From contig JAUVJI010000003.1 in the NCBI GenBank assembly GCA_030596605.1, forward strand, positions 3,346-67,345: DNA of 64,000 bases, given 5' to 3'. The stretch is from Bacteroidales bacterium. Its GTDB lineage: Bacteria > Bacteroidota > Bacteroidia > Bacteroidales > JAADJA01. The notes beneath the pieces were generated by a model. It searched no databases. It worked only from the letters and a program-made list of their open reading frames with translations, and was not told the DNA's origin. A program made the position numbers and the translations under genes. Below are positions 7,373 through 45,075 of this stretch, in pieces (positions within the stretch are counted from its first letter, which is position 1; each line of letters opens with the position of its first letter).

Positions 7373-8953
7373 TTACTGTACAATAAATTTATTATGGCCT
7401 ACAATCTGTCCGTTAGTATAAACCAGCACAATATAGATTCCAGAATACCATCCTTGTACACTCACTTCACTCTTCCCTTGATATTGGTATACCCTTTCCT
7501 TAAAAACCAAATCCCCAAAAACATTAAAACACTTTAATTCCATGTTTTTGTGGTGCTCCATATTTTGAAACTTAAAAGTTATTTCATCTCCATTTACCGG
7601 ATTAGGAAAAGCTTTAATCCTTATAGTCTTTTTCTTTTTATTATAATCCTCAAACCACGGCACATCATCAATATTAGTTATAATGCTGCACCCTGCTAGG
7701 TCGATAACACCAGATTGTATGGGCAGTTCTGTGCATAGGCTGTCGTAATTGTAATTGCCGGGATAAATAGTATCATGCTCAAGGCTGTCGTTCACTTTGT
7801 ATAAATATACATCATAACTTAAATCGGGATAACGGTAGCTGGTTGCTATTACATATTTATTATCAAAGGTTTTGTATAGATGCGGTGAACCACTTGTTCC
7901 TGCTCTGATTACATAATTATACACATTCCCTATTGTATCAAAAACAATCTCACCCTGGGAATTACCTTCTTCGTCGTATAAAAATCCAGCAGTTGCAATG
8001 AATATACTATCATTTACCCGTTCAATTTCATAAAATGTTGATTCATTAACTTCAGGACCCAATTTGTCATTTGAGATTACCTGGTAACCTGTCTGCTCTC
8101 CTTCATCATTATAAAGCATAGCCCATGCATTCATATGGTTTCCTCCATACCTGTACCGCCCCACCCCCATAAACAAAGAACCATTTATTTGAATCGTTTC
8201 TAATGCTTTCCCTTTCATATTATCCATTAATCCAAACTCAAGCAACCAAATTTCTTTAAAATCGTTATCTATTCCTATAAACATCGGTCTTATTGAACTA
8301 GTTGTCGGATAATTCGGATGAGGGGAATATACATATCCGCTGATAATATAAATATCATCAAAAAACTGGATACGGCTGCCAAGGCGCATTTCAAAATCAG
8401 GATAATTATCACAGGAAGCATAAGATTTTTTCCACTTATACTCGCCATCAGGAGATATGCAAAAAAGGTATATCATATCATGTTGATCCTCATCTGGCAT
8501 ATTGGCTACGGCTAATAAATCACCATTTTCAAGCATTATGGCATCATAAAATGCTCCATCAACGTATTCTTCAAAGTATAAATGTTTACACCACTGCAAT
8601 TCTCCACAAGCATTAAGTTTTATTGCAAGGGGCCAAAAAGGCTCTATATACTGGTGCAAGGTGCCAAACAGGTATATGTTTCCCTGCTCATCATATACAG
8701 TTTTCTCTATAATTACCTGTTCAGGATAATTACCCAATACTTTATCCCATAATACAACCCCATTAATGTCAGTTTTAACCAACCATCCTAAATCATCATA
8801 TTGGGCAGGTATTAAATACCCATTGTCATAATACTCAATAACCCTTCTGCTATCTTCATAATGGTTTGGCTCACCTATTGTATGTTCCCATTTCTGTGAA
8901 AAAGCGGTTAATATTGCCAGGATTAGAACCGATACTAAAATTACTCTTTTCAT
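7373..8953 (-). CDS. T9SS-secreted repeat (probable beta-propeller) protein
   Basis: Signal peptide; W-x-K repeats (WDKVLG, WCKHL, WKKSY); CTD AFPNP...SGIYIV...KFIVQ. Confidence 0.85.
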   Translation of the reverse strand: MKRVILVSVLILAILTAFSQKWEHTIGEPNHYEDSRRVIEYYDNGYLIPAQYDDLGWLVKTDINGVVLWDKVLGNYPEQVIIEKTVYDEQGNIYLFGTLHQYIEPFWPLAIKLNACGELQWCKHLYFEEYVDGAFYDAIMLENGDLLAVANMPDEDQHDMIYLFCISPDGEYKWKKSYASCDNYPDFEMRLGSRIQFFDDIYIISGYVYSPHPNYPTTSSIRPMFIGIDNDFKEIWLLEFGLMDNMKGKALETIQINGSLFMGVGRYRYGGNHMNAWAMLYNDEGEQTGYQVISNDKLGPEVNESTFYEIERVNDSIFIATAGFLYDEEGNSQGEIVFDTIGNVYNYVIRAGTSGSPHLYKTFDNKYVIATSYRYPDLSYDVYLYKVNDSLEHDTIYPGNYNYDSLCTELPIQSGVIDLAGCSIITNIDDVPWFEDYNKKKKTIRIKAFPNPVNGDEITFKFQNMEHHKNMELKCFNVFGDLVFKERVYQYQGKSEVSVQGWYSGIYIVLVYTNGQIVGHNKFIVQ

Positions 8954-8969
8954 ATCAAATATTTTAAAA

Positions 8970-9002
8970 AAAAGCCTCCCGGATTTTAAACACAGGGAGA
9001 CT
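8970..9002 (-). terminator. Hairpin between the chassis gene and its partner gene
   Basis: GCCTCCC...GGGAGAC inverted repeat next to an A-run (U-tract on the minus strand). Confidence 0.5.
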
Positions 9003-9010
9003 GATAACGG

Positions 9011-12000
9011 TTATTTTACCAGTGTAAATTTAACACTTTCTATTGAATTTCCATTAATTAATAATGTTGCAATATACACGCCCGATTTCCAGTTTTCGGT
9101 TACTATCGTTATCTGGTCTTGTTTCCCGGTAGTTGTTAATGTATGGATTGTTTTACCTGTAACATCCTTGATTTGAATACTGAAATCTGCTTCTGTTTCC
9201 AGTTTGTATTCCAATATCACATAATCCTTAGATGGGTTGGGATATACTTCAAGCATTTGTGGCGGTTTGGTATTGACAAGATTATTGTATTCCTCTATTG
9301 CTTCTGATGACTTGTAGGGATCAGAAAACAGAATAGGTTCTTCGTACTCCAGTTCACCAATGGCCATCAGTATATTCCTTGCATAAGCCCTTGCAGGTAT
9401 TGTTCCTCCTGATGCCAGCGCTTGTAATTCTGTTAACTGGCTTGCCGTTAAGGAAGCAATGGTATTACCGTTTTCATACAAGTCTGAGAGCATGATATAA
9501 ATATCTAACATTTCGGTGTATCTCTGCTGCTCATCTTCATCAAGATTAAACAAGGCCGGAATGTTATTTATTATATTTTCTCCCAACTGGTACTCACCCT
9601 GTTCAAGGTATAACCAGGCAAGGCGGTAATTACTATTTAAAGTATTGTCTTCCTGGTACAGGGCCAGGATGCTGTCGGATGCTGCCTGATGTTCCAGTTG
9701 CTCATTGTAATAACGGATAATGTTGTTCATGGCTATTGCCTTTTCCAGTTTATATCCTGCCAGTTGCGCTTCCAGTTCCTGTTTCAGGTTTTGAATACTG
9801 CGGCCTGCCAGTATCTGGGCTTTCATATATTCGGGCATAGGATCGAAGCGTTCATCCAGTTTTTCGAGTAATACCAGTGATTTGGCCGTATGTGGGTTGG
9901 CTACCATTACATTACGTACCATTGCATTCGGAAGTACTGTTTCCTTTTCAATAGTGCTTTCTACTACAGTTTCCGACAAGTTTGGCGATTCGCTCATCAG
10001 TTCGTTATATACCTGCACTGTTTCGGGTGGGGTGCTGGTTTCAACTTCGGTATTTAATGCTTCGGTATCACCGCCGTCTATCATTGCTGTTAATATTGCT
10101 TCGGTGCTTTCGATCCCCGATTGGGCATCGCTCATTTTACCTCTTTCATCTTCTATACCGCCACCACCGCCGGGGTTGATTCCCGATTCGCAGGCCTCCT
10201 CAAGGCTCCACTCTAATGTTGTAGGTTTTCCATGCTTATCCACCGTAACATCAAATTGGGCATCCATAGGTTCGACATTATTATTGCTTGCATTAGTAGA
10301 GAAATAATAATCAATATAGTTAGCCGTATTGTCGATATCATCATAATCGGCAGCACTGGTTTCATAATAAAAAATATTGCCTGCCATGTCTTCGATGTTT
10401 AGTGTACCTTCTCCCTGGTTTCCTGCTATACCTGCATCACTATGTATTATTGGATGTTCCCAGATAATGGTTTCGTCCGCACCTGTATCATTATAGTCGT
10501 TACACTTGATTACTAATCCTTCTTTCGGACTTTTTCCGTTGCGGTTTTTCCCCTGTACCTTGATGGCTTCTTCTACATAGTTAAACTCATTCAGGTAGAT
10601 CTGGTTGGGATCCCTGCCCGATTCGTTGACTATGATACCGATGCCTATAGGGTCAGGTGGTTGAGTAATTGAAGGATCTTTTGAAACTCGTTATCTTCTA
10701 CCCAATAATCAGTGCATTCATCAAGATATAACCCATATCCATTACTGCCAACATCCAGATCAAACTGAAATAAATTTGATGTCACCCTGGGTGAGGTCAT
10801 GCCGCTAAGATAAACTCCTCTGTAATTGTTAATAAAATCAGTATGACGGATGTCAACTTTCCGGGTAGTTGTGGCAGCTGTGGCATATACACCGTATTCC
10901 AGGTTGATAAATTCGCCGTTATCCCATTCATCGCAATCGGAAGGCGTTCCCGAAACACAATCACCCTCAATAAATATGGTAGATTTTTCGCTTAATATCC
11001 CGGTATATTCGGGTTCAGAGGTTTTTTCATTTAAAAAATTACAGAAGGTAACATCCACTCCTGTCATATTTTCAACAACCATATAGTTTACAGGTTCTTC
11101 ATAACCGAAATAGCTATCGTCCAGTTTGAAAACACAATTGTTGAAGTAGCTAACACTGATGTGCGGGTAAGAATAAAATTGGATGGCTGTCTGGTTATTG
11201 ATGAACTGGGCATCGCTGGCCTGGATGATGCCACCGGTAAAACTATAGTTAGGCAGATTATCTTCAGGAGGTGGTACATACTCCATTTTGACAGCACGGA
11301 TCGCACAAATAGCATTCTTGATAGTGCTTTGATTTAAAGCTCCTGACTCTATCTCTACCCAACCCTGGTCAATTGGATTTTGCCCAGCTGTTGATGTACC
11401 CCATACTTCAATACCGGCCCACAATTCATTATCATTAACGCTGGTAAGCGTACATCCATCTAATTCAAGTTTTCCACCTCTTTCTAAAATTATTTTCCCA
11501 TTTTCTACAAAACCAACTGTTACCCCTTCAGAGATGGTTAAAGTACTTCCAGAACAAATTCTGATCTCATCAGCATAAGTTACATTTTCATCCCAGGTTA
11601 CGTGTGTATTATCACATATTTGTAATGATGTGGGCAAGGTAAATGTATCAAAATCATTTTTCCACGTACTAAGGCCATCATCATAATGATTTATTATGAT
11701 ATCCATAAAGTCATCTTCGATATTTATTTTTGCAAAATGATGAAAACTTTCAGCTTTTAATCCGCCGGAACCAGGAATATAGAGAGGTGCTCCACCTCCA
11801 CCTAATGTTAAATGATGAACGCCATTTACCAGCCAATGAGCATAATAGTGATAATGACCTGCAATAACTAATTGAACATTATATTGTTCACACATTGGTT
11901 GAATAATATTTTGTACATGCTCATTATTATCTTCCTCACCACTGTTGGAGTATCCTGGTGCATGAAAAAAAATTATTTTCCATTTTTTATCCGTAATTGT

Positions 12001-12885
12001 TAAGTCTGCATTTAACCAGTTTATTTGACCCTGACTTGGTTCCCAAAAGTCATCCATGATATACAAACAACAAACATGTACAGGACCATAATCGAAGGAA
12101 TAGAATGCTTCAACTGGGTCCCATATAGGGTGATCATAATAAGTATAACTATATGGCCAGTATTTTTCATATATTACACCAGCTTCTCCATAAGTTTCAT
12201 GGTTTCCATAAGTTCCCATAACAGGTAATTTTGTAAGCATTTCAACAGCATTAATATCATCAGCATTGAAATAACATAATTTCCATTCATCTTCAGAATC
12301 CAGTTTATTCCAGTCACCCGCATGTAATAAAAAGGTTTGGCTTGTTAAGTCTGAATTTATTTCTACATTTATTTGCTGGCAGACTTCATCATGAAAAAGT
12401 GATTCATAGGGAGGAGTACCATTTACTCCATTACCACGTGTATCACCATAAGCATAAAAGGTTAAATCAGTTGATGTTTCTAATGGTGGGGATATAAAAG
12501 AACTTTCAATTACCTCGAATTCTTCAGTATTATCAATTGGGGCAATAACTTTATAATAGTATTTTTCCTCTGGAATGAGGTTATTTATTAGAAATGAGAA
12601 TCTGTATTGAATATCACTTTCCTGAATCGGATCAACTGATTCACTACCTAATTCATAAATTACAGGGTCGTCCTCAATTCCCCATTCTATAGTACAGGTT
12701 TCTACACTGTTTAGCTGCCACATAATAACAATATCCCTTATTTCTGGGGTATATATTGTTTCTGTATTATCCAATTTATTTTGAAATAATAAATAGGGTT
12801 TCTTTCTGAAGGGTGATTCAGTTTGTGCTTTAAGAATTAATGGGATTGTAATAATCAAACTAATAACAATAATTATCTTTTTCAT
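9011..12885 (-). pseudogene. Metallophosphoesterase (purple acid phosphatase-like) + beta-helix + helical domain + T9SS CTD, split by one frameshift near 10680
   Basis: GDTR, HAGDW, GNHE, FFHAP and GHYH motifs; the -1 frame after DNEF reads KDPSITQPPDPIGIGIIVNESGRDPNQIY...KCND without a stop into the 9011..10387 ORF and aligns with the paralog at 12989..20110. Confidence 0.85.
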
Positions 12886-12939
12886 TTTTCTAATGTTTTT
12901 AATTTATTTACATACTGCACTATTTAATCTATAACATTA

Positions 12940-12974
12940 TCAAAAGTCCCTCATATTTGTAGAGGGACTTTTGA
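12940..12974. terminator. Perfect 13-bp inverted repeat (intrinsic terminator or processing hairpin)
   Basis: TCAAAAGTCCCTC-N9-GAGGGACTTTTGA. Confidence 0.7.
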
Positions 12975-12988
12975 ATTTGTGGATATTT

Positions 12989-15900
12989 TTATCTGATTGA
13001 TACTTTTTTACTTTCAATTGTTCTTCCGTTCACATACAGAGTTATTAGATAAACCCCAGCCTTCCAGTCTTTGGTATTGACCACCTTCTGGTCGCGGTTT
13101 ATTGAGCAAACTTCGGCGTAAACAGGTTTACCGGTAAGGTCTATAATACTCAACAGTATATCTCCAAAATATCCTTCTGTATTATAGTCCACTATAATGT
13201 AATCTTCTGCCGGATTTGGAAATACATTTAATACCTCCGGTTTATCATCAAAACCAAATGTCTCATTTTCTATCACCTCTGATGATTTCAATATGTCCGG
13301 CAAGATGATTGGCTCTTCATAATCCATCAAACCGGCGGCAATCAGAATATCACGGGCATAAGCTCCAGGAAACCAATCATCATGTTCGGCCAGTATTTCC
13401 AACTGGGAAGCCTGAACGCTGTCAACTAACAGTTCATTGCCTTCCAGTTGTTCAAGAATGTTATACAATGATAAATAATCCTGGTGAACGGCTTGTTGCG
13501 TATTTGTCAAATCAAAACCGGATGGAATATTGTTCAATACATTGTTCATAGCATTATAATCCTGTTTATTATAGTAGAAAAATGCCAGCCGGTATTTTGA
13601 AAACAGGTACGGGTCATCTGTGAGCAGCATTTCAAGGGTGTCGGATGATGGCTGCGGATCAATTGTATCCTTACGATAATACTGGTACAGGTTGTTAAAA
13701 TGTTCGCCACGCTTTTGTTTCCACATTGCCAGTTCCGCTTCAATGGCTTCTTTGGCACCTGTAATGTTCACACCCTGCAATACCTGGTCTTTCATCCATT
13801 GTGGCATGGGATCGAAACGTTCGTCAACAGCGCTCATTACTTCATTATCTTTTGCCGATTGGGGATTGGCAACCAGTACATTGCGTATCATTACATTGGG
13901 CAGTACATTTTCTTTGTAAATGGCTGTTTTCATAACCGTATCACTCAAGAAAGGTGATTGGTTCATCAAGTCCTGGTAAACCTCTCCAGCTTCTGGTGGG
14001 ACACTGAGCAAAACATCAAAGTTCATTTCCTCAGTATCTCCTCCATCAACTAAGGCTGCTAACTGTGCTTCTTTTTCACCTATTTCCGAATCTGATTCAG
14101 CCATCCCTTCACGGTCATCTTCGATGTGCCCGCTGTTGTCGTCAAGTTTTGATGGGCAAGCTCCCTCTTTGGTATATTCTGCATTTGGATTAGGAGATAT
14201 ATGCATAGTTTGAGTAGAATAAAAAGGATGAGGAATAACTTTTTCATTTGTTCCATTATCACCATGATACACATAATCAATAAATCCCATGCCGTCAGCA
14301 TTGTAATAATTAAACTCTAATCCGGGGAAATCCTGTGTAAAAGTATTTCCCGCAGGAAGGGTATCATGGTTGCCCTGAAAGCCTTGATGAAATGCAATAC
14401 CATGCTCACTTTCCAGCTTTCCGTTAACAACAATATCATTTATATTATTGGCAAAATCATTACATTTAATGCATAAGCCCAATTCGGTTTCATATCTGTT
14501 GTCGCCAAAGGCGAGAATGCCCTGTCTGAGGTTTTCGAGCATATTATTGTATATCTGATTCCAGTCATCGCCGGATTCGTTTACATATATTCCTATGCGA
14601 CCCAATTCAGATGGCGAAGGCCCTTTGAAAGTATTGGCCTCAATGTGGTAGCCTGTTGAAGTGTTCAGATAAAGCCCGTATTTTTCAATATCGTATTCAA
14701 GTGATACAGGCATATAAAATTCATTGGAAGTAACCCAGGCACCATCCATTCCGCTGATGTATATACCTCGCTGGCAATGATCAAATGTGTTATGTTGGAT
14801 ATCTACATATTCCCCTCCGCTTTTATCCATAGCATAGATACCATAGCTAAGGTTTACAAATGTACCGTTTTCCCATTCGGTACAAGGTTGTGAAATGCTG
14901 ATACATTTGCCTTTAATATTTACCTGCGACCGGTAGATGTAAATACCCCTCCCTTTAAAATCTATCCCTGTATTATTTCTGAAATCACAACCGATAATCT
15001 CCACATCCTGCATATCCCTGATTCGCACGAAATAACCTGGGTTTGCTATGTTAGAATAGCTTTCATCATAAATAAAATCACAACTTTCGATATGGATATG
15101 GCTGTTATATTTATATTTTCTAAAGTCAAGCGCTCTGTCGTTGTTGATAAATGTGGAGTTAAATGCATGTACAACACCCCCCTGAAAATAAACGGGCGGA
15201 ACAAGATCCTGGTCAAAATGGTGGTTGCGAACAGCTACATCGGCATGTTCGATCACGGTTTCGTTCAATATGGTAAGCAATCCCTGGTCGGCCTGGTTAG
15301 AAGAAGCGGGATCACCTCTTACTTCAATCCCTTCCCAATTACCGATGCAGGCTTTGGTAAGTTTACAACCATCCAGGACAAGTTCCCCTTCGGGCTTAAC
15401 AATGATCCTTGACCCTTCGGGTAAAGCCACATTGCCATAAATGGTAAGTTTCGCATTCGGCTCGACAATTAAATCGCTTTGAAGGATTTTATTTTCGGTC
15501 CATTCCACTACACCGGTAATGGTTTCGGGGTTTGATTGATGCGGGCAAAAATCACCATATACGCCGCTGTTGTACCGGTCGTGACGGTATTTGCCCCATT
15601 CTACTTTGTCGGCATCGCCTTCCGTATCCCAAACATGTACTTCTACACCGGAAGTTGCGATAATTTCATTTTTTCCGTCATTATCAATATCATCGATACA
15701 TGGTGTTGAAAAGATACCGTCTATCCTTAATGGCCAGCCCAATACTCTTTGCCCGTCGGTATCAAAACAATATATACCCTTTTTTGAGCCATTTGATGCA
15801 ATTATTATTTCAACATCGTCATCTTCATCAACATCAGCAATGAGTGGTGCAATAAATTTCGCCTCAAGTCCCTGCACGTATATCGGTTCTATAAAGTTTG

Positions 15901-18900
15901 ATCCGTTTTTTTCCCAAATATAAATATATTCATCACTGGCGATTAACACTTCTATATTACCATCACCGTTAATATCAGCCGCACTCGTAACAGGTAACCA
16001 TTGTTTACCGGGGTCACTATTTGTTAAACTGAAAGTATGATCGTCATATTCCCACCCTGAAATAAAATCTCCCTGATAGTTTAGTATGAATACTCTTCCC
16101 ACCGGATATCCAGGTACGTTTCTGCCTGATACACAAATTATTTCATCATAAGGATCATTGTTATAGATATCAGCTATCGTTACAGGGCTGTCCATCCTGT
16201 CGTATTCACCCGGTGCAGGCCCATTCTGATAAAACAATCCGTTCGTGCCTGTAATATAAGGGTCTCCATTTGATTTAAAAACATAAATTCCTGCATCACA
16301 ATCATCACTTGTGGCATAACCTATTATTATCTCTTTGTCTCCGGAATTGTTTATGTTTGCCGCAACAGGCATACTAAAACCAGAGGCATCAATATCAACC
16401 GGCCATTGTCCCGGATAATTCGAATAATCAGAACCGTTTAATACATACAAGGGCGCTCCCCATCTGGCTTTAACCATTATTTCTATACTTCCATTGTTAT
16501 CAATATCAGACAATACAGCACCTTTTACCTCTGGACCTCCCAATCCGTTTGACCACAAGAAATCGGGTTCACCGCTTTGGTCACTATCAACTGTGGAATG
16601 AATGAATATTTTTCGCTTGTCGTTTCCATCACTGTAATGGGTGGTGGTAATTATTTCAAATACATTGTCATTGTCTAGATCTCCAATAACCGGAGTAGCA
16701 CTCGAACCAGCCTCATCAAATTTATAAAATCCGCCATATTCAGTTGGGTTTTGATCAATATCATATATTTCTTCACCATCATGATAAAAGCCGAATATAC
16801 CACCCCTATCATAATCGAGTCCCGGACCTTCTGAAATTGTAAAATATATCTCTTTGTTTCCATCGGCATCAAAATCGGCCGTCATGGGTGAGCCTTCCGT
16901 TCTGCCGCCGAAATCATCTATACTTATTTCTTTATTTGGCCAATCAGCATGATATGGAAGTGATGTCCAGGTTTCTTCCGGTGCGGAAAGATTTCCCTCA
17001 ATACCTGAATGTGAAACACAGCTTACCTTGTAGTAATAAATGGTTCTTGGATTTAGCCCGTAATCGGTATAGCCTGAAAAACCGGTGATTATTTGTTGAT
17101 TAAGAGGGTCACCATAATCGCCGTCAATGGTATTGCAACGGTAAATATTGTAACCTTTTTCATCCAATACCGGGTCCCAAAACAATGTTATGGATTCATG
17201 TGTGCTTTCCCATAAAATTCCTGCTATATCATCCGGTTTATCAAAATCAATTGGAATTTCCCATTCTTTTCCGTAATTATCGGTTAAGGTAAGCAGCATT
17301 TCAATGGTTTCGCCGGCATAATCGCCGGTAACATCAAACTCAAAATAAGAAGGATTACTTTCGGATGTGTGTGAAGGTATATCCCCGAAAGGTTGAACAG
17401 GTTCACCTATATTCGCAACATAAGCAGATGTACTTGTAAGTTCTCCGGTAAGCCCGCTTGCCATGCCTGAACCACCATTATAAAATTCAAAGGTTATGGA
17501 TACTTCATCGTTTGCTTCTATTATTTCTGGATATTCGCCTGTAGATGTAAAAACATTGCTGATCAACTGCGGATCAGGTGCATGAATTTCGATGTATATT
17601 TCATCGGTATAGGTATTTTGTTGCCCGTCGGTTATGCTTAACTCAAAGGCAGCAAGGTACTGGTCGGGGGTTTCGGTGCTAATACTGATAACATAAGCTG
17701 TGGAACATGCTATCGTTGAAAGCGAAGTTATGTCATCAAAATCTGCACCTGATTCTATTACCGTAATGTAATTATTGGGAGGATCAGGTTCTATGTAGGT
17801 GAGTACAGCAGTACCACCTAACGCATTTGTAAGCCCGTTGTTGGTAAGCGAAACAACAAGTTCAGCTGTTTCGCCTGCATCAGCCAGGCCGTCAGCATTT
17901 CCGTTGCTTGGGGCTATGGCATCGTCATCAATAGTTACGTCCGAGACAAACAGGTGGATGCCGGGGTTGTAAAATACCGGAATGGAAGTTTCTACCGGCA
18001 GGTAGTTTTGGGCTGTTACTGTTACCATTATGTCATTTTGATTGTCTTCTGTATCGGGAGTACATTCCACATCTATGGTAACCGTGCCACCGGTGCCAGT
18101 TATGGTTTCTACGGCATAAATTTCGCCAGGGCGGTAAAGGCACACTTTTGCTTCTGTTCCTGTAGTTAGGATATCTATTTGCACCTGTATGGTTTGCTGG
18201 CCGGTATGTACACTGGTGGGAACGTTGACCAAAAGTGGATTTGGCAGGTCGGGGATCTCGGTCCATACGGGCATTTCAGGGTCGGAGGCAAGACTCAAGG
18301 CGAAAAACTGTAATCTTTTTTGACAAGCAGAAATAGATGAAGCATAAAAAAGAGTTTTTATATGATTGAAAGAATTACCAATTAAATGATCATCATTATA
18401 TATGTTTTGAATAAATGGTTTATTATATTCTCCAACCATACTTGTCCAACCAATGGATGTATTGGCAATAACCGAAACACCTCCATTCTCAGAATTTAAA
18501 TAATGCTCTGTTACAGTATTTTTATTCCAGGGCATGGTTGTGCAATGATTTGCCAGGTAAAGAATCTGGCTCCTGTCAGTATTTAAAAGTCCATCCATAT
18601 GAGTCCTGTTAAGTGACCCATTAGCTGCATCAAAACTTGTAGGCCCTCCGTGGCCCAAAGCACAAACCATATTGTATAAAGTATTTGTTGGCCCGGTACC
18701 GTTTAATTCATCCAAAACCTGCATGTTGGTTGCATTTGGGCTGTATAACTCTTCAAAGTTCATATATGCTGGGAATGCTGGTTTTAGTGTATAGCCAATA
18801 TTCCCCAGTGAAGAAAACAGCAAACAATTATTCTCATTACCCTGCGAGGTTTTTATATACTCGAAAAACTTGGTTTTAAACCTGTTCAACTCAATTAGTT

Positions 18901-27546: not shown

Positions 27547-27559
27547 ACCAAATTATTTT

Positions 27560-34459: not shown

Positions 34460-34506
34460 CAGGAATAATTAGCCGAAAAATCAAAAAATAAAAAGAGGAA
34501 TTATAG

Positions 34507-36105
34507 ATGGCTGGATATAAGGAAACCCCACGGCAGAAGATGATAGCCATGATGTACCTGGTACTGACTGCTCTGCTTGCCCTTAATGTTTCGCGTGAGA
34601 TCTTAAGCGCTTTTCTTATCGTGAACGAAAGTATGGAAATCACAAATAAACAGTTTTCCGCTAAGGTTAATGAGATTTATGCTGATTTTGAAAAACAATA
34701 TACTATTAATCCTAATAAAGTAGGAGAATATTGGAATAAAGCAAAAGAGGCGAAAAATATATCAACAAACTTAGTAAATTATCTTGATGACTTGAAAGCT
34801 CAGGTAATATCCCAAACTGAAGGTATCACATTAGAAGAGGCGGATACTATAAACTTGGCAATGGTTAAAAAGAAAGATAATTTTGATGATCCGACAAATT
34901 TTTTCGTAGGTACAGATACGAAAAGAGGCGAAGCCGTTGCTCTGTTGGATAGTATAACCTTGTTCAAAGATAACTTATTAAGCCTCATTAGTGAAGAAGA
35001 CAGAGAAGGTTTTGATTTGGGCTTAAAAACAGATAGTGATTATAAAAATGCGGATGGTAAATCAGAATCCTGGGCAATGCATCATTTTTACCATACTATT
35101 CTCGCTGCTGATATTACTATCCTTAACAAATTTATAGCAGAAACCTACAATGCCGAAGCAAACGTTGTAAACTATTTATATTCTTCTATTTCTGAAGAAG
35201 ATTTTAAGTTTGATGAAGTTAATGCAAAGGTAATTCCGAATAGTAATTATATTTTCCAGGGGGAAGAATATAGGGCTGAAATTCTTGTTGCGGCTTTCGA
35301 TACAAAACAAAACCCTGAAATCTACATTCTTGAAGGCGCTGATACTTTACCGGGATCAATGATTGATAGGGCAAAAAGAATTGAAGGCAAGGAAGGAATA
35401 GTAGAGCTTATACTGCCTGCCAGCTCAGAAGGCACAAAAAAATACGCCGGTATTATCAGGATGAAAACCCCATGGGGAGCTACTCACGACTACCATTTCA
35501 AACATGAATATCTTGTTGCCAAACCTTCAGCTACTGTTTCTGCTGATAAAATGAATGTATTTTACAGGGGAGTTGATAACCCAGTATCTATTTCTGCATC
35601 AGGTAAAGCTGATGCTCAATTAAAGCCCAAAATTACGGCTGGACGTTTGAGCAGATCTAAAGGTGGATGGGTTGTAAACAATCTACCTGGTGAAGCCTAT
35701 GAAACAACAATCAGTATTTATGCCGAAGATAATGGGGGGCAGAAAAAGATGGGAGAGCAGTTGTTCAGGGTAAAAAGGTTGCCCGACCCGATTGCAAAAG
35801 TAATCGGTTCGACTGACGGAAAAATTTCAATGAGAAAAATGCTGGCAAATCCATTTTTATTATGTCAGTTGCCCGAATGGGTAGATTTTGAATACGATTT
35901 TAAAGTGACATCATTTACCATGTTTATCCCTAAGGGCGGTGGATATTTTGTTACTGAAAAAGCTGAAAGCCAATTATACACTAATAAAATGAAAAACCAG
36001 ATACAATCTTTAAAAAAGAATGATGTGATTGTATTTCGTGATATAAAAGTAAGAGGACCGGAGGGGCCTCGTAAAATTGAATCAATTAATATTACAATAA
36101 ACTAA
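34507..36105 (+). CDS. gldM: T9SS motor protein GldM/PorM
   Basis: PRQKMIAMMYLVLTALLALNVS and KMNVFYRGVDNP motifs. Confidence 0.94.
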   Translation: MAGYKETPRQKMIAMMYLVLTALLALNVSREILSAFLIVNESMEITNKQFSAKVNEIYADFEKQYTINPNKVGEYWNKAKEAKNISTNLVNYLDDLKAQVISQTEGITLEEADTINLAMVKKKDNFDDPTNFFVGTDTKRGEAVALLDSITLFKDNLLSLISEEDREGFDLGLKTDSDYKNADGKSESWAMHHFYHTILAADITILNKFIAETYNAEANVVNYLYSSISEEDFKFDEVNAKVIPNSNYIFQGEEYRAEILVAAFDTKQNPEIYILEGADTLPGSMIDRAKRIEGKEGIVELILPASSEGTKKYAGIIRMKTPWGATHDYHFKHEYLVAKPSATVSADKMNVFYRGVDNPVSISASGKADAQLKPKITAGRLSRSKGGWVVNNLPGEAYETTISIYAEDNGGQKKMGEQLFRVKRLPDPIAKVIGSTDGKISMRKMLANPFLLCQLPEWVDFEYDFKVTSFTMFIPKGGGYFVTEKAESQLYTNKMKNQIQSLKKNDVIVFRDIKVRGPEGPRKIESINITIN

Positions 36106-36117
36106 TTGGAGGTTTTT

Positions 36118-36972
36118 ATGAAAACTACAATAAGTATAATAATATTGGTGGGAATGATCATAGGAATCAATTCCACATCCGTAGCTCAGATTCTGGATAG
36201 TCCGCGCGATGGTGTTTTTGATGAAATCCACTTGCAGAATAAAAAACCTATTCCGTATTACCCGGTTAGGGAAGCAGATGTAATATGGAAAAAAAGGATT
36301 TGGAGGATCATGGATCTCCGTCAGAAAATGAACCATCCTTTTTATTATCCGGAGACACCTCAGAAAGGCTGGAAAAATTTTATGACCGTAATAATGGACG
36401 CCATCAGGGAAGGGACAATAACTGCTTACGATCCTTCAAAAGATGACCAATTCCTTGTTCCGTTAACCTATCAGGAAATTGAAAAAAAATTCACCCGTAC
36501 TGATACTGTACCCATTGTTGACCCAAATAATCCGCAAAGAATTTTAAGATATGAGGTCGTAAAAGAGGATTTTGACCCATCTGAAGTACAACGGATCAAA
36601 TTAAAAGAAGACTGGTTTTTCGACAAGCAGCGTTCGGTTATGGATGTGAGGGTTTTGGGTATTTGCCCGGTTAGAAACCTGTATGATGATGATGGAAATT
36701 ATTTTGGTCTGGAAGAAATGTTTTGGATTTATTATCCCGAAGCAAGGCCGGTATTTGCGCAGTCCATTGTATTTAACAGGAGCAACAGCGCTGAAGAAAG
36801 AACTTACGATGAACTGTTCTGGAAGAGAATGTTTGGAAGCTACGTATATAAAGAAGAGAATGTTTACAATAGGGAAATAACCGATTATGCATCCGGAATG
36901 GATGCCCTGCTGGAAGCAGAGAGGATCAAGAACGAGCTTTTCGAATTTGAACATGAACTTTGGGAATTCTAA
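36118..36972 (+). CDS. gldN: T9SS protein GldN/PorN
   Basis: VREADVIW, KEDWFFDK and FEFEHELWEF motifs; ATG at 36118. Confidence 0.93.
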   Translation: MKTTISIIILVGMIIGINSTSVAQILDSPRDGVFDEIHLQNKKPIPYYPVREADVIWKKRIWRIMDLRQKMNHPFYYPETPQKGWKNFMTVIMDAIREGTITAYDPSKDDQFLVPLTYQEIEKKFTRTDTVPIVDPNNPQRILRYEVVKEDFDPSEVQRIKLKEDWFFDKQRSVMDVRVLGICPVRNLYDDDGNYFGLEEMFWIYYPEARPVFAQSIVFNRSNSAEERTYDELFWKRMFGSYVYKEENVYNREITDYASGMDALLEAERIKNELFEFEHELWEF

Positions 36973-39191: not shown

Positions 39192-40790
39192 TTATTTTTG
39201 TATCACAACCTTTCCACTATAAACCATTCCCTCAACTTCCAGGTTGTAAAAATAAATCCCATTCCTCATGCCCCTCAAATCAAAAACTGTTTTTTCTTCA
39301 ATTATCTGCTTCCTTAACACCTTCCTCCCAAAAACATCCATTATTCGAATTTCCCTTGTCTCCCTGACTTCAAACATCGAACCTCGAACTTCGAACTCAA
39401 AGACTACATAATCCTTTGCAGGATTTGGATAAACCTTTAATCCACTTTTTCCTATATTTTGATTAATTACATTCGTACTCGTATCTTCTATCTCAAACAC
39501 CCAAAAATCCTTATCTCCATGAGGCGTACACTGTACATCATAAGAAGGCCCCCAATCTGTTTGTGCGGCAATTACAAAATTGTTGTCGCTCTTTTTTACT
39601 ACACCGAAATATAGCCCTTCATTACCTTCTCCTCCAATACATTGTTGGGTTAATAATTCTCCATCACTATTTAATTTTATCATCCAAATATCATGGTCAT
39701 ATTCGCTTAATGAATGATTTCCTGATACATCTCCATTGTTCGATCGAGTAACACAAAAAGAAACGAACTCACCAGAAGTAAGTTGATTAATATTATCTAA
39801 AGTTTCCCAATTTGATCCTCCAAGTGCATTTTGCCATATAATATTGCCATAAAAATCTAATTTAACTATCCATACATCACTTTCTCCATGCCAACCGGAA
39901 ACATCCCCATCATTTGAACTTGTATAAGCACCAAATATATAACCGTCACCTACTTCAAGCAATGTAACAATCCCGTCATGATCACTACCACCATAGCAAT
40001 GTTGCCACTCAATATTCCTATCAGCATCAAGTTTAGTTAATACTGCTTCGGCCATATAACTGTGTGGCTCGCAGGTGATATTACCTCCTTCGCCGAGCAT
40101 GGAGTTGCTGGATGCAAGGTAACCTCCATCAGAAGTTTGCATTACCGCCTGGCCTTTATCAATCCAGTCTGTTCCAATGGTAAAGTCCCATTCCAATTCC
40201 CCTTCGCTATTTAGTTTTATCATCCAGGTGTCGGCGCCCCCATAGTTTATGCTCACATCCCCATCGTTGGAGTATGTCCAGCCTAATGCTACAACTCCCC
40301 CGTCCAGGGTAGATGAACCTGTCCATAAAACGTCAGATTCATTTCCTCCAATAATTTTATCCCAGATAATATTACCATCTAAATCAATTTTTAATATCCA
40401 ATGATCCCATGAATCGGTGTATGGATCATAACTTACATCACCATCCGAAGAATTAGAGGCTCCAAGAATATAATAATTTCCATTATTATCAGGTATTATA
40501 CGTCTAAAGTTATCTCCTTTAGTTCCCCCATAAGTTTTCTCCCATAAAATATTCCCGGTGCTATCAGTTTTTATTATCCACCCATCTGAGCCACCATTAT
40601 TAAATGAAATATCCCCATCATTTGATTCTGTCCATCCAACAATTAAGTATCCACCGGTAACTTCAATAATGTCATAAGCATTGTCTTGTTCACTCCCCCC
40701 ATAGCATTGTTGCCATGTAATTTCCATATTTTGACTGTAAACCGATACCTGAAACAAAACAGTTATTAATAAACAAATTATTAATTTCAT
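39192..40790 (-). CDS. T9SS-secreted repeat (beta-propeller-like) protein
   Basis: Repeated WQQCYGGS/WEKTYGG...SNDGDVS units; VYPNP...NGIYFY CTD. Confidence 0.88.
   Translation of the reverse strand: MKLIICLLITVLFQVSVYSQNMEITWQQCYGGSEQDNAYDIIEVTGGYLIVGWTESNDGDISFNNGGSDGWIIKTDSTGNILWEKTYGGTKGDNFRRIIPDNNGNYYILGASNSSDGDVSYDPYTDSWDHWILKIDLDGNIIWDKIIGGNESDVLWTGSSTLDGGVVALGWTYSNDGDVSINYGGADTWMIKLNSEGELEWDFTIGTDWIDKGQAVMQTSDGGYLASSNSMLGEGGNITCEPHSYMAEAVLTKLDADRNIEWQHCYGGSDHDGIVTLLEVGDGYIFGAYTSSNDGDVSGWHGESDVWIVKLDFYGNIIWQNALGGSNWETLDNINQLTSGEFVSFCVTRSNNGDVSGNHSLSEYDHDIWMIKLNSDGELLTQQCIGGEGNEGLYFGVVKKSDNNFVIAAQTDWGPSYDVQCTPHGDKDFWVFEIEDTSTNVINQNIGKSGLKVYPNPAKDYVVFEFEVRGSMFEVRETREIRIMDVFGRKVLRKQIIEEKTVFDLRGMRNGIYFYNLEVEGMVYSGKVVIQK
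39369..39396. repeat. Four degenerate heptamer repeats inside the CTD coding sequence
   Basis: TTCAAAC ATCGAAC CTCGAAC TTCGAAC. Confidence 0.7.
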
Positions 40791-40804
40791 ATTTCAATAT
40801 ATTT

Positions 40805-40841
40805 AAAAAGCACTATGCCAAATTAATGACATAGTGCTTTT
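40805..40841. terminator. Hairpin between the S8 chassis gene and its partner
   Basis: AAAAGCACTATG...CATAGTGCTTTT. Confidence 0.75.
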
Positions 40842-40845
40842 ATTA

Positions 40846-43800
40846 TTATTTACTAATGACCAATTTTCCACTCTTATTAAAACCAGATATATTTAAAGTA
40901 TAGAAATAAACACCGGATTTAATCTTCCTGGTATCCCAGATTTTCTGCCCTTGTTTACCGGTAATGGTAAATGCAGCAACTAACTTACCTGATACATCAC
41001 TGATCTTGATCACAGCCTCTGAACCACTATTAGGTAAAATATAGTTAAATGCTGCCCAATCTTTTGCAGGGTTTGGTTCAACAGCAATTTCTATATTATA
41101 CATTTTTTCAAAAGCATTTGGATTGAAACTACTACTGCTCTTATAACCTGAAGTATCAGCATTAATACAATCACAATAATGGTATCCATAAGCAAATTCA
41201 AGTATCCCTTTTGCCTGTGTTCCTGCTGTTCCATTGCTGTTTTCAGCAATTAATACAAGGTTATTTACCTCTATGCTGTTAAGGTCAAAAATAGTCCTTC
41301 CTTCATTTGCAAGGGTAATTTGCAAATTCAGCATTTCGGTATAATAGTTATGTTCAGTTATCTCATCATCTTTATAAGCGTACAGAGTGGGCATCATATT
41401 AACCAAAGACATAGCATTCAAAGTGTTTCCTTCCTGCATATAGGATGCTATTATTTGCTCGTCTGTACGTTTACCGCCTATATTGTCCAACCAGTTTCGC
41501 AATTCAACATAATCAGTAATTGTATCATTTAATATACTCCTTATTATGTCGTGTGCCGCCCTGGTTTTTAATTGATTGTAATGAGCCATTTGCCGGTGTA
41601 ATACTGTTTTGTAAGTAGTACCTGTTGAAACCTGCCTCAATATATCAATCATATACCCAGGTAATGGGTTCTCCTTATCTTCAAGGTATTTTATCAACTC
41701 TTCTTTTTTCAACTCATCGGGGTTGGCCGCCATTATCTCAAAGATTATGCTTTCGGGCAGTACTTCGGTTTTATCGGCTGCCGCTTTTAAAACATCCATC
41801 GAAAGGTGTGGTGACTTTCCAAGTAGTTCTGCACGCAGTTCCCAAGTGTCATCAGGCCATGCAGTTTCTACTTCTGCAATAGTTGCTTCGGTGTTACCAC
41901 CGTCTTTCAGGTTATCGTATAAAGCTTTTACATTATTATAGCCTGTAAGATTTGTAACAAACTCCTGTTCGGCTTGCTGCTTTTCTTCAGGCGAAAGCAC
42001 CATTCCTCTGCCGGAGCCTCCGCTTCCGCCACCTCCGTAATGCGACGTACATTCGTTTTGTATGCCTACAACTTCTTCACGGGTTATCCGGTTAACTTCA
42101 TCAGGATAATACACCGTATTTGTGTTTCCCTGGGTAGGGGCATAATAGTAATAACCTATCCAGTCATTGTAATCCCAGTTGTTAAAATTATAATTGGCAT
42201 TTGCCGAAAAAGTATTGCCTGCGGGCATTTCAACAGAACCTATGGGATCCTGTATGCCATCATCCTGATTAGGGACATCTTCAACCGTAAAATCTTCCCA
42301 ATTTCCTGTATTCTCGTTGCAGTAATAGGCGAGGCCTTCCCAGGTGTGATTCCAATACCAATTCTTCCCCACCGCATAATTACCATAGCTCAAACCATCA
42401 AAGTAGTTTTTATACACTTCGTCGGTGGCCTGGGTTTCGGCAATGTGGATGCCAATATAATTCCCTAATGGTGCTCCTGTTGCTTTGTAAAATTTATTCT
42501 CCTCAATAGCAAAACCGGTGCAGTACTCCAGGTGTATTCCATACGAACCTTCCTCCTTACCTTCCCCTTCGCATTGTCCCGGCTCGTCAGCGTTTTCGCC
42601 TATATAAAAATCGCTGAACAGTATAGTGGCATTGTTAACCAATTTCAGTTTTACACCATAAGTATTATCGTAAAATTCGGCATTGTCAACTGTTATAGTG
42701 TAGGTTCCTGCCGAGTTTAAGTTTATGGCTTTCGTAAAATTGGTAAATTTGTTTAGGTCTAAATATTCCTCAGGACAGGGGGATTGGTGCGACCGGCATA
42801 TGGCTTCTACTTTAAAACCGGAGCCCCAGGCATTAATTCCATGTCCTGCAGGGGTTTCTGACTTATTATTAATGAAAGTACAACCCTCAATATTTACACC
42901 ATTTACACCAAGCATATAAATGTTGGAATACCACCAGCCACCTGCTATGTAATCTCCATTCATTTCAAAATGGCAGTTTTTTAAGTAACTCACATTGGGG
43001 GCATAGTTTATTCTTAAAGTGCATGTTAATGGATCTTCAGTTAGATCAGGATAAAAATTCCGGTAAGTCCAGAATACAACAGATTTCCTGTTATTCGTAA
43101 AATATGCGCTTGGGTTATACCTGTCACCATTATCAGGAACCTCTATAATACCACCTGTCTGATTATAACTTTCACCGTTTCTGGCAGCTAGAAGCACTCC
43201 TATCTCTGCATTCTCAATAGTACCGCTATTCAGGATTCTTATTTTCCCCTGTTGCTGTTGCCCATCACATTTAAACTGGCTGTAATTTTTATCTCCCCAA
43301 ACCTCAACACCCGGCCACAGCACATTATCATAGCCACAGCATTTCAGGTTGGTAAGCAGTCCGCCATCAATTTCCAATTCGGCACCCGGCTCAATAATCA
43401 GCACAGCTTCAGGCCCGAATTGTATTTCGGAAGTAATGATAAGTTTTGCCCCGCTGTTCACAATAACAGGGTTGATAAAACTTTTCGGCTCGCTCCATGT
43501 TGTAATGCTCACAATCTCCTCGTCAAACTCAATATACTCCCATGCCATACAAACGGCTTTGTATGTATTCAGCCTTCCATAGCCTACATATTGATTAAAA
43601 CCAAAATAATCATATACATAGGGATCATTGGGATCGTTTTCGTGTACTTTATCAGCTGATTCATGCAATATATCCCTGATTTCTTCATTTGTAAGATCAG
43701 GATTAACCGAAAGCATCAGCCCTATTGTAGCCGACACCATGGCAGAGGCTGCCGATGTCAAGCCCTCTGGTATCATTTCATAAGTGGCCGAATTATAAGG

Positions 43801-45075
43801 AGGTTCGGGATAATCGGGAATAATTCCAAGAATATTCTCCCCCGGAGCAGCAATATCCAGACCGCTTCCATAATTTGATTTAAACATCTTATAGTCATCC
43901 ATATCTGTTGTTCCAACAGCAAAAACATTGTCCCATCTGGCAGGATAACTTACAATATCATTTCCGCCTTCTTCTTTATTACCTGCTGCGGCAACAAAGA
44001 AAATGTCATTGAAAATATAGGCCTCATCAATCATTAATTTCAGATCAGTTGAATTGAATGTTTCAAAAGCCATTTGAATAACACTCACCTCTTTTGTATA
44101 ACCGTCATGTAATATACAATATTGAATTGCACGTTCAAGACTTTCGGTTGTTATACCGAAATTTTCAAAAACACTCGCTCCGGTGTATAGCAATGATACC
44201 CCTTTGTTTCCCCATCCGCCGGCAATACCGGCAATGTCGGTTCCGTTGTTGGTTTTGGCGCCTATTATTCCTGCTATAAATGTACCGTGTTTCCACAGCT
44301 TATCCGCAAAATCACCATAATAAGGTTCAGGATAATAAGTATAAAGTGCATCACGATCATATTCCCTTGTATCGTTGTTTAATGGTTCTGGACAATTTAC
44401 TACCTTTACTGCAAATCCTTTCCAATCATCAACATAAATATAATCTGGATCTGGATTTGGATCATCATCATCTTTTTCACCGCTACATGGATCAAATTGG
44501 TCTGTCCAATCATTTTCTGCTTCATTTAAATAATTATTTTCATATCCGTCGTTCCCAGGCCCAAGATCACCGTGTTCCCAGTCAAAACCGCTGTCAACGA
44601 TTCCTATTATTACATCTTCGTTCCCGGTTGTGATATTCCATGCTTGTGTAGCTTTTATGGTATCTAAGTACCATTGCTGGTAAAATTCAACATCATTGGG
44701 AGTAATGGGATCGCAGGTTAACTTAACTTCATAATTTAATTCAAGTACCTCGATATTCGGTTCGTTCTCCAGGTTTGTGCACATGGCAATAAAACCAAGC
44801 CCTGATATGTAATTATACGAAATAAACCCGGTAATAAACTCATGTTTTCGAACAAGGCTATGCGTATTTTCGATTGAAGTGATAACACTACTTTCGGTTC
44901 CTTCAACATATTTGATTATAAATGTAGAGGTATCAATCCTGAAAGTGTCGCTTAGATATATTTTAAAATATATCCCGTTATCATAATGGATTTCGTGGTT
45001 GCCGATGTTGTAAACTGCACCGGAAACATGAACAATTAGAACAAATGCTATAAATGAAACTATAAGTTTTTTCAT
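40846..45075 (-). CDS. S8 subtilisin-like peptidase + beta-helix + helical domain + T9SS CTD
   Basis: VDSG (Asp), HGT (His), AAAGN, GLTSAA (Ser); VEPNP...SGVYFY CTD; likely ATG 45075. Confidence 0.9.
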   Translation of the reverse strand: MKKLIVSFIAFVLIVHVSGAVYNIGNHEIHYDNGIYFKIYLSDTFRIDTSTFIIKYVEGTESSVITSIENTHSLVRKHEFITGFISYNYISGLGFIAMCTNLENEPNIEVLELNYEVKLTCDPITPNDVEFYQQWYLDTIKATQAWNITTGNEDVIIGIVDSGFDWEHGDLGPGNDGYENNYLNEAENDWTDQFDPCSGEKDDDDPNPDPDYIYVDDWKGFAVKVVNCPEPLNNDTREYDRDALYTYYPEPYYGDFADKLWKHGTFIAGIIGAKTNNGTDIAGIAGGWGNKGVSLLYTGASVFENFGITTESLERAIQYCILHDGYTKEVSVIQMAFETFNSTDLKLMIDEAYIFNDIFFVAAAGNKEEGGNDIVSYPARWDNVFAVGTTDMDDYKMFKSNYGSGLDIAAPGENILGIIPDYPEPPYNSATYEMIPEGLTSAASAMVSATIGLMLSVNPDLTNEEIRDILHESADKVHENDPNDPYVYDYFGFNQYVGYGRLNTYKAVCMAWEYIEFDEEIVSITTWSEPKSFINPVIVNSGAKLIITSEIQFGPEAVLIIEPGAELEIDGGLLTNLKCCGYDNVLWPGVEVWGDKNYSQFKCDGQQQQGKIRILNSGTIENAEIGVLLAARNGESYNQTGGIIEVPDNGDRYNPSAYFTNNRKSVVFWTYRNFYPDLTEDPLTCTLRINYAPNVSYLKNCHFEMNGDYIAGGWWYSNIYMLGVNGVNIEGCTFINNKSETPAGHGINAWGSGFKVEAICRSHQSPCPEEYLDLNKFTNFTKAINLNSAGTYTITVDNAEFYDNTYGVKLKLVNNATILFSDFYIGENADEPGQCEGEGKEEGSYGIHLEYCTGFAIEENKFYKATGAPLGNYIGIHIAETQATDEVYKNYFDGLSYGNYAVGKNWYWNHTWEGLAYYCNENTGNWEDFTVEDVPNQDDGIQDPIGSVEMPAGNTFSANANYNFNNWDYNDWIGYYYYAPTQGNTNTVYYPDEVNRITREEVVGIQNECTSHYGGGGSGGSGRGMVLSPEEKQQAEQEFVTNLTGYNNVKALYDNLKDGGNTEATIAEVETAWPDDTWELRAELLGKSPHLSMDVLKAAADKTEVLPESIIFEIMAANPDELKKEELIKYLEDKENPLPGYMIDILRQVSTGTTYKTVLHRQMAHYNQLKTRAAHDIIRSILNDTITDYVELRNWLDNIGGKRTDEQIIASYMQEGNTLNAMSLVNMMPTLYAYKDDEITEHNYYTEMLNLQITLANEGRTIFDLNSIEVNNLVLIAENSNGTAGTQAKGILEFAYGYHYCDCINADTSGYKSSSSFNPNAFEKMYNIEIAVEPNPAKDWAAFNYILPNSGSEAVIKISDVSGKLVAAFTITGKQGQKIWDTRKIKSGVYFYTLNISGFNKSGKLVISK

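Follow-up and report, generated by a model that had tools for sequence, protein, structure and literature searches.

A type IX secretion cargo family of Bacteroidales with exchangeable heads, a common beta-helix/helical chassis and a predicted propeller partner

Proteins exported as cargo by a type IX secretion system (T9SS) are usually treated singly, as an enzyme plus a C-terminal sorting domain (CTD). Here we deal with a family of such proteins that may be organised differently. The window, i.e., the whole stretch of DNA that was analysed, comprises 64,000 nucleotides of a Bacteroidales bacterium (JAADJA01; assembly GCA_030596605.1, contig JAUVJI010000003.1, positions 3,346-67,345, forward strand). 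It holds three genes whose products begin with a metallophosphoesterase (MPE), a C25 peptidase or an S8 peptidase and share a region of about 770 residues ahead of the CTD, which we call the chassis. Two further genes, pA and pB, encode the candidate partner proteins. An earlier sequence-only reading had seen in these genes enzyme heads exchanged on a common stalk, with the downstream protein acting as inhibitor, adaptor or cap. The chassis and partner genes, all on the minus strand, and the secretion operon between them are the following:

7373..8953 (-): partner pA, 526 residues; signal peptide, seven-bladed beta-propeller, Cys linker, T9SS CTD (about 7376-7609), as predicted
8954..9010 (-): spacer between MPE chassis gene and pA; 8-bp GC-rich stem, then U8, terminator-like but weak
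9011..10690 (-): 3' frame of the MPE gene, 559 residues from stop to stop; last beta-helix coils, helical DGGDTE domain, CTD (about 9014-9247), as predicted
10679..10682 (-): A4 run at the frame change of the MPE gene, from sequence reading and run contigs
10645..12885 (-): 5' frame of the MPE gene, 746 residues; signal peptide, metallophosphoesterase head, first two thirds of the predicted beta-helix (from about 11601 downward)
12886..12988 (-): spacer between C25 gene and MPE gene; 13-bp stem-loop, then a U-rich tract
12989..20110 (-): C25-headed chassis protein, 2373 residues; C25 propeptide and peptidase, FG-GAP region, chassis, CTD
14174-15526, 13337-14125 and about 12992-13225 (-): beta-helix, helical domain and CTD of the C25-headed protein, respectively, from Pfam and AlphaFold2 (AF2)
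39192..40790 (-): partner pB, 532 residues; predicted beta-propeller of a second subfamily plus CTD, cognate to a divergent S8-type chassis clade
40791..40845 (-): spacer between S8 chassis gene and pB; 15-bp perfect stem, then U5
40846..45081 (-): S8-headed chassis protein, 1411 residues from a TTG start (ATG at 45075); subtilase head, chassis 41077-43521, CTD about 40849-41076
30802..36972 (+): porP-porK-porL-porM-porN core T9SS operon, from NCBIfam

The heads are unrelated. Pfam identifies them as Peptidase_C25 (1.1e-34) plus FG-GAP, Peptidase_S8 (3.6e-34) and Metallophos (1.9e-11). Behind them the proteins are homologous, as the sequence-only reading had claimed. From residue 1529 to its end, the C25 protein aligns with the S8 protein (from residue 521); 25% of 918 columns are identical (E 6e-54). 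The identity of its chassis is 39% to the 3' frame of the MPE gene (E 5e-106) and 35% to residues 429-735 of the 5' frame (E 1e-44). A fourth copy of 1417 residues is found on another contig of the same genome (L007:6819-11072), followed by a partner gene (11141-12769); its head yields weak, sub-threshold matches to GH5/apiosidase-like proteins. Directly upstream of this gene lies an open reading frame (ORF) of 187 codons (L007:6230-6793, +) that matches nothing in Pfam and whose N-terminus resembles a signal. In alignments of 32 and of 50 sequences, the consensus of the family repeats the ordered motifs noted in the window: GG.L..DGG, W.GIEVWG, QG, GGI, F.NN, KCNDF, AGN.F and CPS, then DGGDTE, SPYLSDTV, VLPNAMIRDV.VANP, PMPDYM and YARN.L.A, and finally the CTD. 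The latter is well recognised in the products of the three chassis genes and in both downstream proteins, where it had also been anticipated: scores range from 33.4 to 45.2 bits (cut-off of Pfam PF18962, 27; that of TIGR04183, 23, is also exceeded). The E-values for Por_Secre_tail are 5.3e-09 for pA, 1.1e-11 for the MPE 3' frame, 1.6e-10 for pB and 5.6e-08 for the S8 protein.

In one respect the first reading had to be corrected. What it took for a single open gene at 9011-12885 consists, in the window, of two overlapping frames (10645-12885 and 9011-10690) that break at the A4 run at 10679-10682. Contigs of four public runs (X1, X2, X3 and X8) were compared over 10300-11000. X2 equals the window. 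X1, X3 and X8, which stem from three studies, have one extra base in the run (T after 10678; A5), which brings both halves into frame. This stretch occurs in runs labelled as cold-seep and sediment metagenomes. An intact relative of 1252 residues with the same metallophosphoesterase head (P0158) is also known. Because three of the four runs are in frame and this intact relative exists, the break is an assembly error or a homopolymer length variant, with no sign of a long-dead gene. The A4/A5 difference could be an assembly error or else a true variation in length by which the metallophosphoesterase gene is turned off and on.

The fold of the chassis was modelled with AF2 on residues 1529-2295 of the C25 protein and a 32-row alignment (predicted local distance difference test, pLDDT, 85.5; predicted template-modelling score, pTM, 0.85). 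The model comprises a right-handed beta-helix with regular three-strand coils (residues 1-451), an all-helical part (468-730) and a disordered linker to the CTD. By this model the chassis is predicted to be a right-handed beta-helix of about 450 residues followed by an alpha-solenoid of about 270 residues, which resembles tetratricopeptide repeats (TPR) and begins with DGGDTE; the motif itself (residues 494-499) forms the end of the first helix. Both parts of the presumed beta-helix/helical stalk are thus predicted. Neither has a specific name in the databases. Pfam beta-helix models touch the MPE copy (NosD, PF05048, 20.1 bits; cut-off 23.6) and the fourth copy (Beta_helix, PF13229, 26.1 bits; cut-off 25.9); no such model matches the C25 or the S8 copy. 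For the helical domain Pfam and NCBIfam report nothing, Foldseek nothing better than a TPR domain with E 0.4, and the ESM Atlas only unnamed clusters of "hypothetical protein". A profile search of the PDB with the chassis matched CTDs only; a stretch of acetyl-CoA carboxylase with E~0.5 was dismissed as chance. The DGG(D/N)TE domain, therefore, keeps the status of an unnamed family in Pfam, NCBIfam and the PDB, and a characterised family to which the whole chassis could be assigned was found neither there nor by Foldseek or in the ESM Atlas. Nor did we find a description of the chassis or the chassis-propeller pair in the literature, where supplementary domain maps might hold one.

The family is large. 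A HMMER search of 1.84 billion cluster representatives (clusters at 50% identity) yielded 4277 matches to the chassis at E<=1e-3. The stricter threshold of E<=1e-30 is passed by 1370, which come mostly from metagenome-assembled genomes of Bacteroidales. In all of the 150 matches listed the chassis lies at the C-terminal end, behind 0-1578 other residues. In the source databases the relatives are called "hypothetical protein", "T9SS type A sorting domain-containing protein" or by the name of the head, and by nothing else. Organism labels among the relatives include Lentimicrobium sp. and Draconibacterium. In a sample of the window's own order, 38 of 201 genomes match the chassis at E<=1e-20, often with several copies each. 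A phylum-wide sample contained three matching genomes out of 401 at the same threshold, the own genome included. The chassis is rare outside the window's order; the phylum-wide sample says little more, since it holds few genomes of that order. The three proteins of the window and the fourth copy belong to a type-A T9SS cargo family that is very large, lacks a name and stems mainly from Bacteroidales-type bacteria.

The heads were counted in relatives with precomputed Pfam annotation, 56 and 79 from two word-index searches, of which 128 hold most of the chassis. C1 peptidases prevail (35 of the 128), followed by heads without any Pfam match (32), C25 peptidases (18), sortilin/BNR (9) and S8 peptidases (8). 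M43 peptidases, MAM alone and FG-GAP alone account for three each, and Metallophos, Reprolysin and C10 for one each. The remaining 14 were scored as headless; seven of them are fragments truncated at the N-terminus and seven are truly headless.

A FastTree phylogeny of the chassis (131 rows, the seven truncated ones left unlabelled) was used to follow the 124 head labels. They change 48 times; the possible minimum is 12 and the mean of shuffled labels 76.4. With well-defined labels only (83 rows, seven labels), 27 changes are needed, where 6 would be the least possible and shuffled labels average 43.6; none of 300 shuffles was as low. Because the label changes exceed the minimum and stay below the shuffled mean, the heads are inherited more often than not, yet have been replaced many times. 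Single cases illustrate this. A clade of 12 rows with starred support joins the window's C25 chassis with S8-, MAM- and FG-GAP-headed proteins, and the sister of the window's S8 chassis, again with starred support, is a C25-headed protein. The C25 protein of the window and P0209 are 70% identical in their heads and 37% in their chassis. The opposite is seen with P0211 and P0219 (chassis 88%, heads 36%); such head identities stem from global MAFFT alignments of multi-domain heads and may be understated at unequal lengths, and only pairs with heads far more similar than chassis were relied on. FastTree warned of long branches for P0263, P0187, P0194, P0190 and P0259, and their placement was not relied on either. 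Heads and chassis evidently have different histories, and the idea of swappable enzyme heads on a common chassis stands.

The protein next door is likewise unnamed. The AF2 model of pA is all-beta with a pLDDT of 92.7. Foldseek matches it to the propeller of CylK (1.7e-13) and to the lectins PLL and PHL (about 5e-8), and the sequence profile of the pA family also finds CylK (E 2e-16). The propeller is followed by a linker that reads YNYDSLC...GC in pA and YTYDSLC...DC in the family consensus. All 50 partner relatives scanned have a CTD match. Pfam propeller repeats are weak and scarce in these 50 (SBBP in two, DUF5122 in five), which does not make the partners members of SBBP or DUF5122. Pfam has no model for the partner propeller itself, and at least 225 relatives are unnamed.

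The linkage between chassis and partner was assessed in 79 loci of other genomes. They contain 82 chassis 3' ends, of which 14 with less than 1400 nucleotides downstream were set aside, leaving 68. A partner was scored if a homologue of the 526-residue pA or of its own-genome paralogue started within 1 kb downstream on the same strand. This was the case after 62 of the 68 chassis genes, with a median gap of 56 nucleotides, and the adjacency with a gap of this size holds down to about 25% identity. Headless chassis genes also have their partner (L010, L014, L015, L023, L035, L049 and L082). In the own genome, the pA type exists in two strong copies only, pA itself and the partner of the fourth chassis gene (34% identity), each adjoining a chassis gene. 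In the order sample, 19 of 21 genomes holding a partner also hold a chassis. The presumed co-occurrence is thus confirmed in other genomes. Tandem partner genes, two or three in number, follow some chassis genes, as in G094:C35:19210-26376, where three are found at 21888-23156, 23501-24766 and 25111-26376; L081, L085, L077 and L055 are further examples.

The sequence-only reading had both loci of the window end in a similar protein of 526-532 residues. Both do end in a predicted propeller with a CTD; the two proteins, however, belong to different subfamilies and are only weakly alike by BLASTP (E 7e-6). By hhalign, pB matches the profile of the pA family with a probability of 99.9 (E 8e-32, 19% identity). 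Judged by these sequence comparisons, pA and pB are distinct subfamilies of one propeller superfamily. Orthologues of pB stand directly downstream in eight of 12 loci of the divergent S8-type clade. Two others have a third kind of CTD protein of about 490 residues, which starts with a hydrophobic segment that looks like a signal peptide (L126:1467-2924, -; L128:2813-4315, +). These proteins show QAFSLDTTF or QEFSIDTTF after the leader and, outside the CTD, match the partner profile only weakly. The type of partner follows the chassis clade. In 49 cognate pairs, the distances between chassis and those between partners are correlated with a Mantel r of 0.84, which none of 2000 permutations matched.

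Do the two proteins bind each other? A complex was modelled for the intact pair of the own genome, i.e., the fourth copy, with residues 200-755 of the chassis fragment, residues 24-462 of the propeller and an alignment of 50 rows for each. Three runs reached an ipSAE of 0.68, 0.72 and 0.76, whereas the highest-scoring of three controls had 0.01. The runs had at least 81% of the contacts in common, and the pLDDT of the partner was at least 86. The mark applied is reached by 58 of 80 solved complexes and by two of 110 mismatched pairs. In the model, loops of all blades, on one face of the propeller, contact the last coils of the beta-helix (366-461) and spots in the helical domain (494/497 and 596-607). 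Physical binding of chassis and propeller is thus predicted by the modelling.

These observations lead us to a reading that we consider probable, with moderate confidence: the proteins are a two-subunit T9SS cargo in which a non-catalytic beta-helix/alpha-solenoid stalk docks a cognate propeller, while the heads are swapped repeatedly. A family member would consist of a Sec signal, an optional N-terminal head, the chassis and the CTD. Most heads would be peptidases (C1, C25, S8, M43 and C10); the others are metallophosphoesterase, glycosidase-like, sortilin/BNR or MAM modules. The partner, a seven-bladed propeller encoded by the next gene, would be exported separately by virtue of its own CTD, and one of its faces would rest on the last coils of the beta-helix, where the helical domain adjoins. 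Chassis and propeller would form the core unit of two subunits, and the heads would be accessory modules, exchanged many times by recombination. The T9SS would export both subunits via their CTDs, and both would probably remain at the cell surface; secretion, removal of the CTD and attachment to the surface are predictions from the sequences. The CTDs and the kinds of heads suggest surface display and foraging. The hydrolases might be presented for the use of proteins or polymers, and the free face of the propeller might bind a ligand or glycan.

Not everything favours this reading. Six of the 68 chassis genes lack a partner and are followed by unrelated genes (L012, L017, L040, L065, L074 and L075). 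Two of the 12 S8-clade loci have none, and the C25 gene of the window has no partner of its own; the MPE gene comes next. Many paralogues of the pB type occur elsewhere in the genome, away from chassis genes. The Mantel correlation is to be expected from linkage alone; it is consistent with co-evolution and no proof of it. The calibration of the complex mark holds only roughly with user-supplied alignments, and the beta-helix was cut at residue 200 because of its size, which exposed an artificial end. The columns of the predicted interface vary more than the remaining ones of each protein (entropy 2.8 vs 1.95 and 3.16 vs 2.17, the comparison set including buried core residues). Interface conservation was, therefore, discarded as an argument for binding. 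The variability would agree with co-evolution within specific pairs; a conserved interface would look different, and the binding gains no independent support from it.

The spacers also deserve attention. They were folded and compared with shuffled sequences (z values). The one between the S8 gene and pB (40781-40855) forms a 15-bp stem with -21 kcal/mol and z -5.98, that between the C25 and MPE genes (12876-12998) a 13-bp stem with -25.6 kcal/mol and z -4.96; for the latter spacer, none of 200 shuffles was as good. The spacer between the MPE gene and pA (8944-9020) is weak: 8 bp plus U8, -15.2 kcal/mol, z -1.67. A hairpin between chassis and partner gene, as proposed from the sequence, is accordingly strong at the S8/pB spacer and weak at the MPE/pA spacer. 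Because stem-loops with U-rich tracts end each gene, chassis and partner may not be co-transcribed; transcription may be attenuated or separate, which is a further point against a tight pair.

Most of these points would suit the strongest competing explanation. The propeller could be an independent T9SS-exported lectin or adhesin that is located next to the chassis gene and inherited with it, both with the same task and regulon, and the two would form no stable complex. Terminator-like hairpins between the genes, an interface predicted at variable positions, pB-type propellers at many other sites of the genome and chassis genes without partner are what one would expect in this case. In addition, seven of 44 blindly picked neighbours passed the same complex-prediction test. 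Against it stand the distance between the predicted complex and its best control (0.72 vs 0.01) and the agreement of the contacts. Mere neighbours would also hardly explain why the strong copies of the pA type in the own genome all adjoin chassis genes, why the partner subfamily matches the chassis clade, and why the narrow spacing persists to such low identity. We consider a linkage without binding unlikely, though it is the alternative to be taken most seriously.

A bolder version of the two-subunit reading would be a docking system on the Bacteroidales surface that is pair-specific in the manner of cohesin and dockerin. Every genome would have several orthogonal stalk/propeller pairs, and their variable, co-evolving interfaces would prevent cross-assembly. 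After separate export by the T9SS, the subunits would assemble themselves outside the cell into complexes that bear enzymes, and recombination between head and stalk would allow any hydrolase to be plugged into an anchored platform that already binds a ligand. This we regard as possible, yet rather doubtful.

If the two-subunit reading is correct, the stalk would not be an enzyme, which is not self-evident. Right-handed beta-helices are the nearest folds in Foldseek searches of the PDB and viral libraries (AlgG epimerase, HK620 and other tailspike glycanases, GH28, polysaccharide lyases and NosD; probability ~1.0). The chassis could, therefore, be a polysaccharide lyase, hydrolase or epimerase in its own right. 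The headed proteins would then be bifunctional, the headless ones plain glycan-active enzymes, and the propeller a carbohydrate-binding subunit. That headless chassis-partner pairs are common indicates that the chassis does something alone, and the resemblance of the partner to seven-bladed lectins such as PLL and PHL would also fit. However, all PDB matches have E>1e-3 and query-normalised template-modelling scores of 0.16-0.30, and the Pfam beta-helix scores are at or below threshold. Low similarity of this kind cuts both ways, so that the assignment as non-catalytic rests on residue conservation. In 32 sequences the invariant columns of the beta-helix comprise Gly, Phe, Asn, Cys, Gln, Ala, Leu, Tyr and Pro only. 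A single Asp is invariant in the 50-row alignment (D371) and nearly so in the 32-row alignment (D364); no His, Lys, Arg or Glu is invariant in either. The conserved acidic or basic groove residues by which polysaccharide lyases, GH28 enzymes, AlgG-type epimerases and tailspikes work were not found. The N-x-F motif that recurs per coil likely builds a structural ladder with stacks rather than an active site. Since the conserved residues are structural in type and lack a catalytic signature, the beta-helix is most likely a stalk, and a catalytic chassis appears distinctly improbable.

The idea of a polymorphic toxin system, with heads as weapons exchanged by recombination and a small downstream gene for an immunity protein or inhibitor behind a conserved delivery region, fits the gene layout, but is very improbable, because the partner has its own CTD and, by eye, an N-terminal signal peptide and would be exported rather than kept in the cell, follows the chassis clade instead of the head type and accompanies headless genes; moreover, the heads belong to ordinary secreted hydrolase families, the predicted contact lies on the chassis (in a model without head), and a non-secreted immunity protein co-varying with the variable domain was not seen. 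For the same reasons, the inhibitor among the roles first proposed for the partner is disfavoured, while adaptor or cap would agree with the complex model.

As to the surroundings, the T9SS operon indeed lies between the two loci. NCBIfam identifies PorP (1.1e-57), GldK (6e-177), GldL (2.9e-70), GldM (8e-103) and GldN (3.5e-74) at 30802-36972. PorP, PorK, PorL, PorM and PorN all exceed the curated cut-offs, so the core T9SS machinery is present in the same genome; it is the presumed export machinery for the CTD proteins of the window. Directly downstream of pA, beside the peptidase-rich locus, a bacterial alpha-2-macroglobulin of 2048 residues is encoded (740-6886, -; MG2, A2M_BRD, A2M and bMG10). 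Just upstream of the C25 gene lies that of a T9SS cargo of 528 residues with leucine-rich repeats, immunoglobulin domain and CTD (20173-21759, -). As conserved neighbours the operon, the alpha-2-macroglobulin and the leucine-rich repeat protein were rejected; they are present in 0, 0 and 1 (L083) of the 79 related loci, respectively. Because none of these loci has the operon or the alpha-2-macroglobulin, their proximity in the window is no part of the chassis system. Apparently unrelated to the present topic are a 212-residue ERCC4 plus helix-hairpin-helix nuclease (21943-22581, -) and the DUF3108 protein that follows (22611-23471). An ORF of 328 codons without Pfam match (26560-27546, -) is situated in the stretch of lowest GC content (0.309, 26001-28000); by eye, its neighbours resemble aminoacyl-tRNA synthetase genes.

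Why should one care? The unnamed chassis unites at least 1370 sequence clusters and bears a large part of the peptidases that uncultured anaerobic Bacteroidales secrete. If the partner binding is real, this would be the first case of an obligate two-subunit T9SS cargo, and two new protein families would merit models in Pfam or NCBIfam. It would further explain how extracellular hydrolases are shuffled in these bacteria, offer a modular surface-display scaffold for Bacteroidota and improve the annotation of thousands of proteins now listed as "hypothetical" or "T9SS type A sorting domain-containing". The docking system, if true, would be a way of organising T9SS cargo that has not been described before, and a natural display scaffold made of two parts.

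Several known systems invite comparison. PorZ, a component of the T9SS itself, consists of beta-propeller domains and a CTD (PMC8545088, PMC5121618). Like the partner, it is a CTD-bearing propeller exported by the T9SS, and it is reported to act at the surface in complex with another CTD protein, PorU. PorZ, however, is single-copy machinery, while the protein discussed here is a multi-copy cargo partner with one CylK/SBBP-like propeller. "Ca. Paraporphyromonas polyenzymogenes" secretes multi-modular carbohydrate-active enzymes via the T9SS, with several catalytic and carbohydrate-binding modules in a row (PMC5831590). These, too, are large modular CTD hydrolases from uncultured Bacteroidales with unannotated "hyp." regions; the main text of that paper mentions neither beta-helix nor propeller and describes no common chassis or partner gene.

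In its fold, the partner resembles the C-terminal propeller of CylK and the seven-bladed Photorhabdus lectins PLL and PHL (PDB 7ron, 5mxg and others). The identity is as low as 8-13%, the partner lacks the N-terminal domain and the catalytic role of CylK, and sugar binding is putative.

Type V autotransporter passengers such as the SPATEs (serine protease autotransporters of Enterobacteriaceae) display a protease head on a right-handed beta-helix stalk. The common principle is an N-terminal enzyme head on a long beta-helix, a C-terminal secretion determinant and different heads on a common stalk. No sequence relation was found with Pfam, NCBIfam or the PDB profile search, and Pfam and NCBIfam find no C-terminal beta-barrel translocator in the chassis proteins, which instead have a T9SS CTD, an extra helical domain and a partner subunit.

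The gingipain-type cargo of Porphyromonas gingivalis (RgpA and Kgp) combines a C25 head with C-terminal non-catalytic adhesin domains and a CTD. The chassis proteins share with it the N-terminal peptidase head (in one window gene even C25 with its propeptide), a large C-terminal region that is likely non-catalytic, the type-A CTD and export by the T9SS. They differ in that Pfam reports no haemagglutinin or cleaved-adhesin domains, the C-terminal region being a predicted beta-helix plus alpha-solenoid. Above all, one and the same region here carries many unrelated heads, and a dedicated propeller gene stands next to it.

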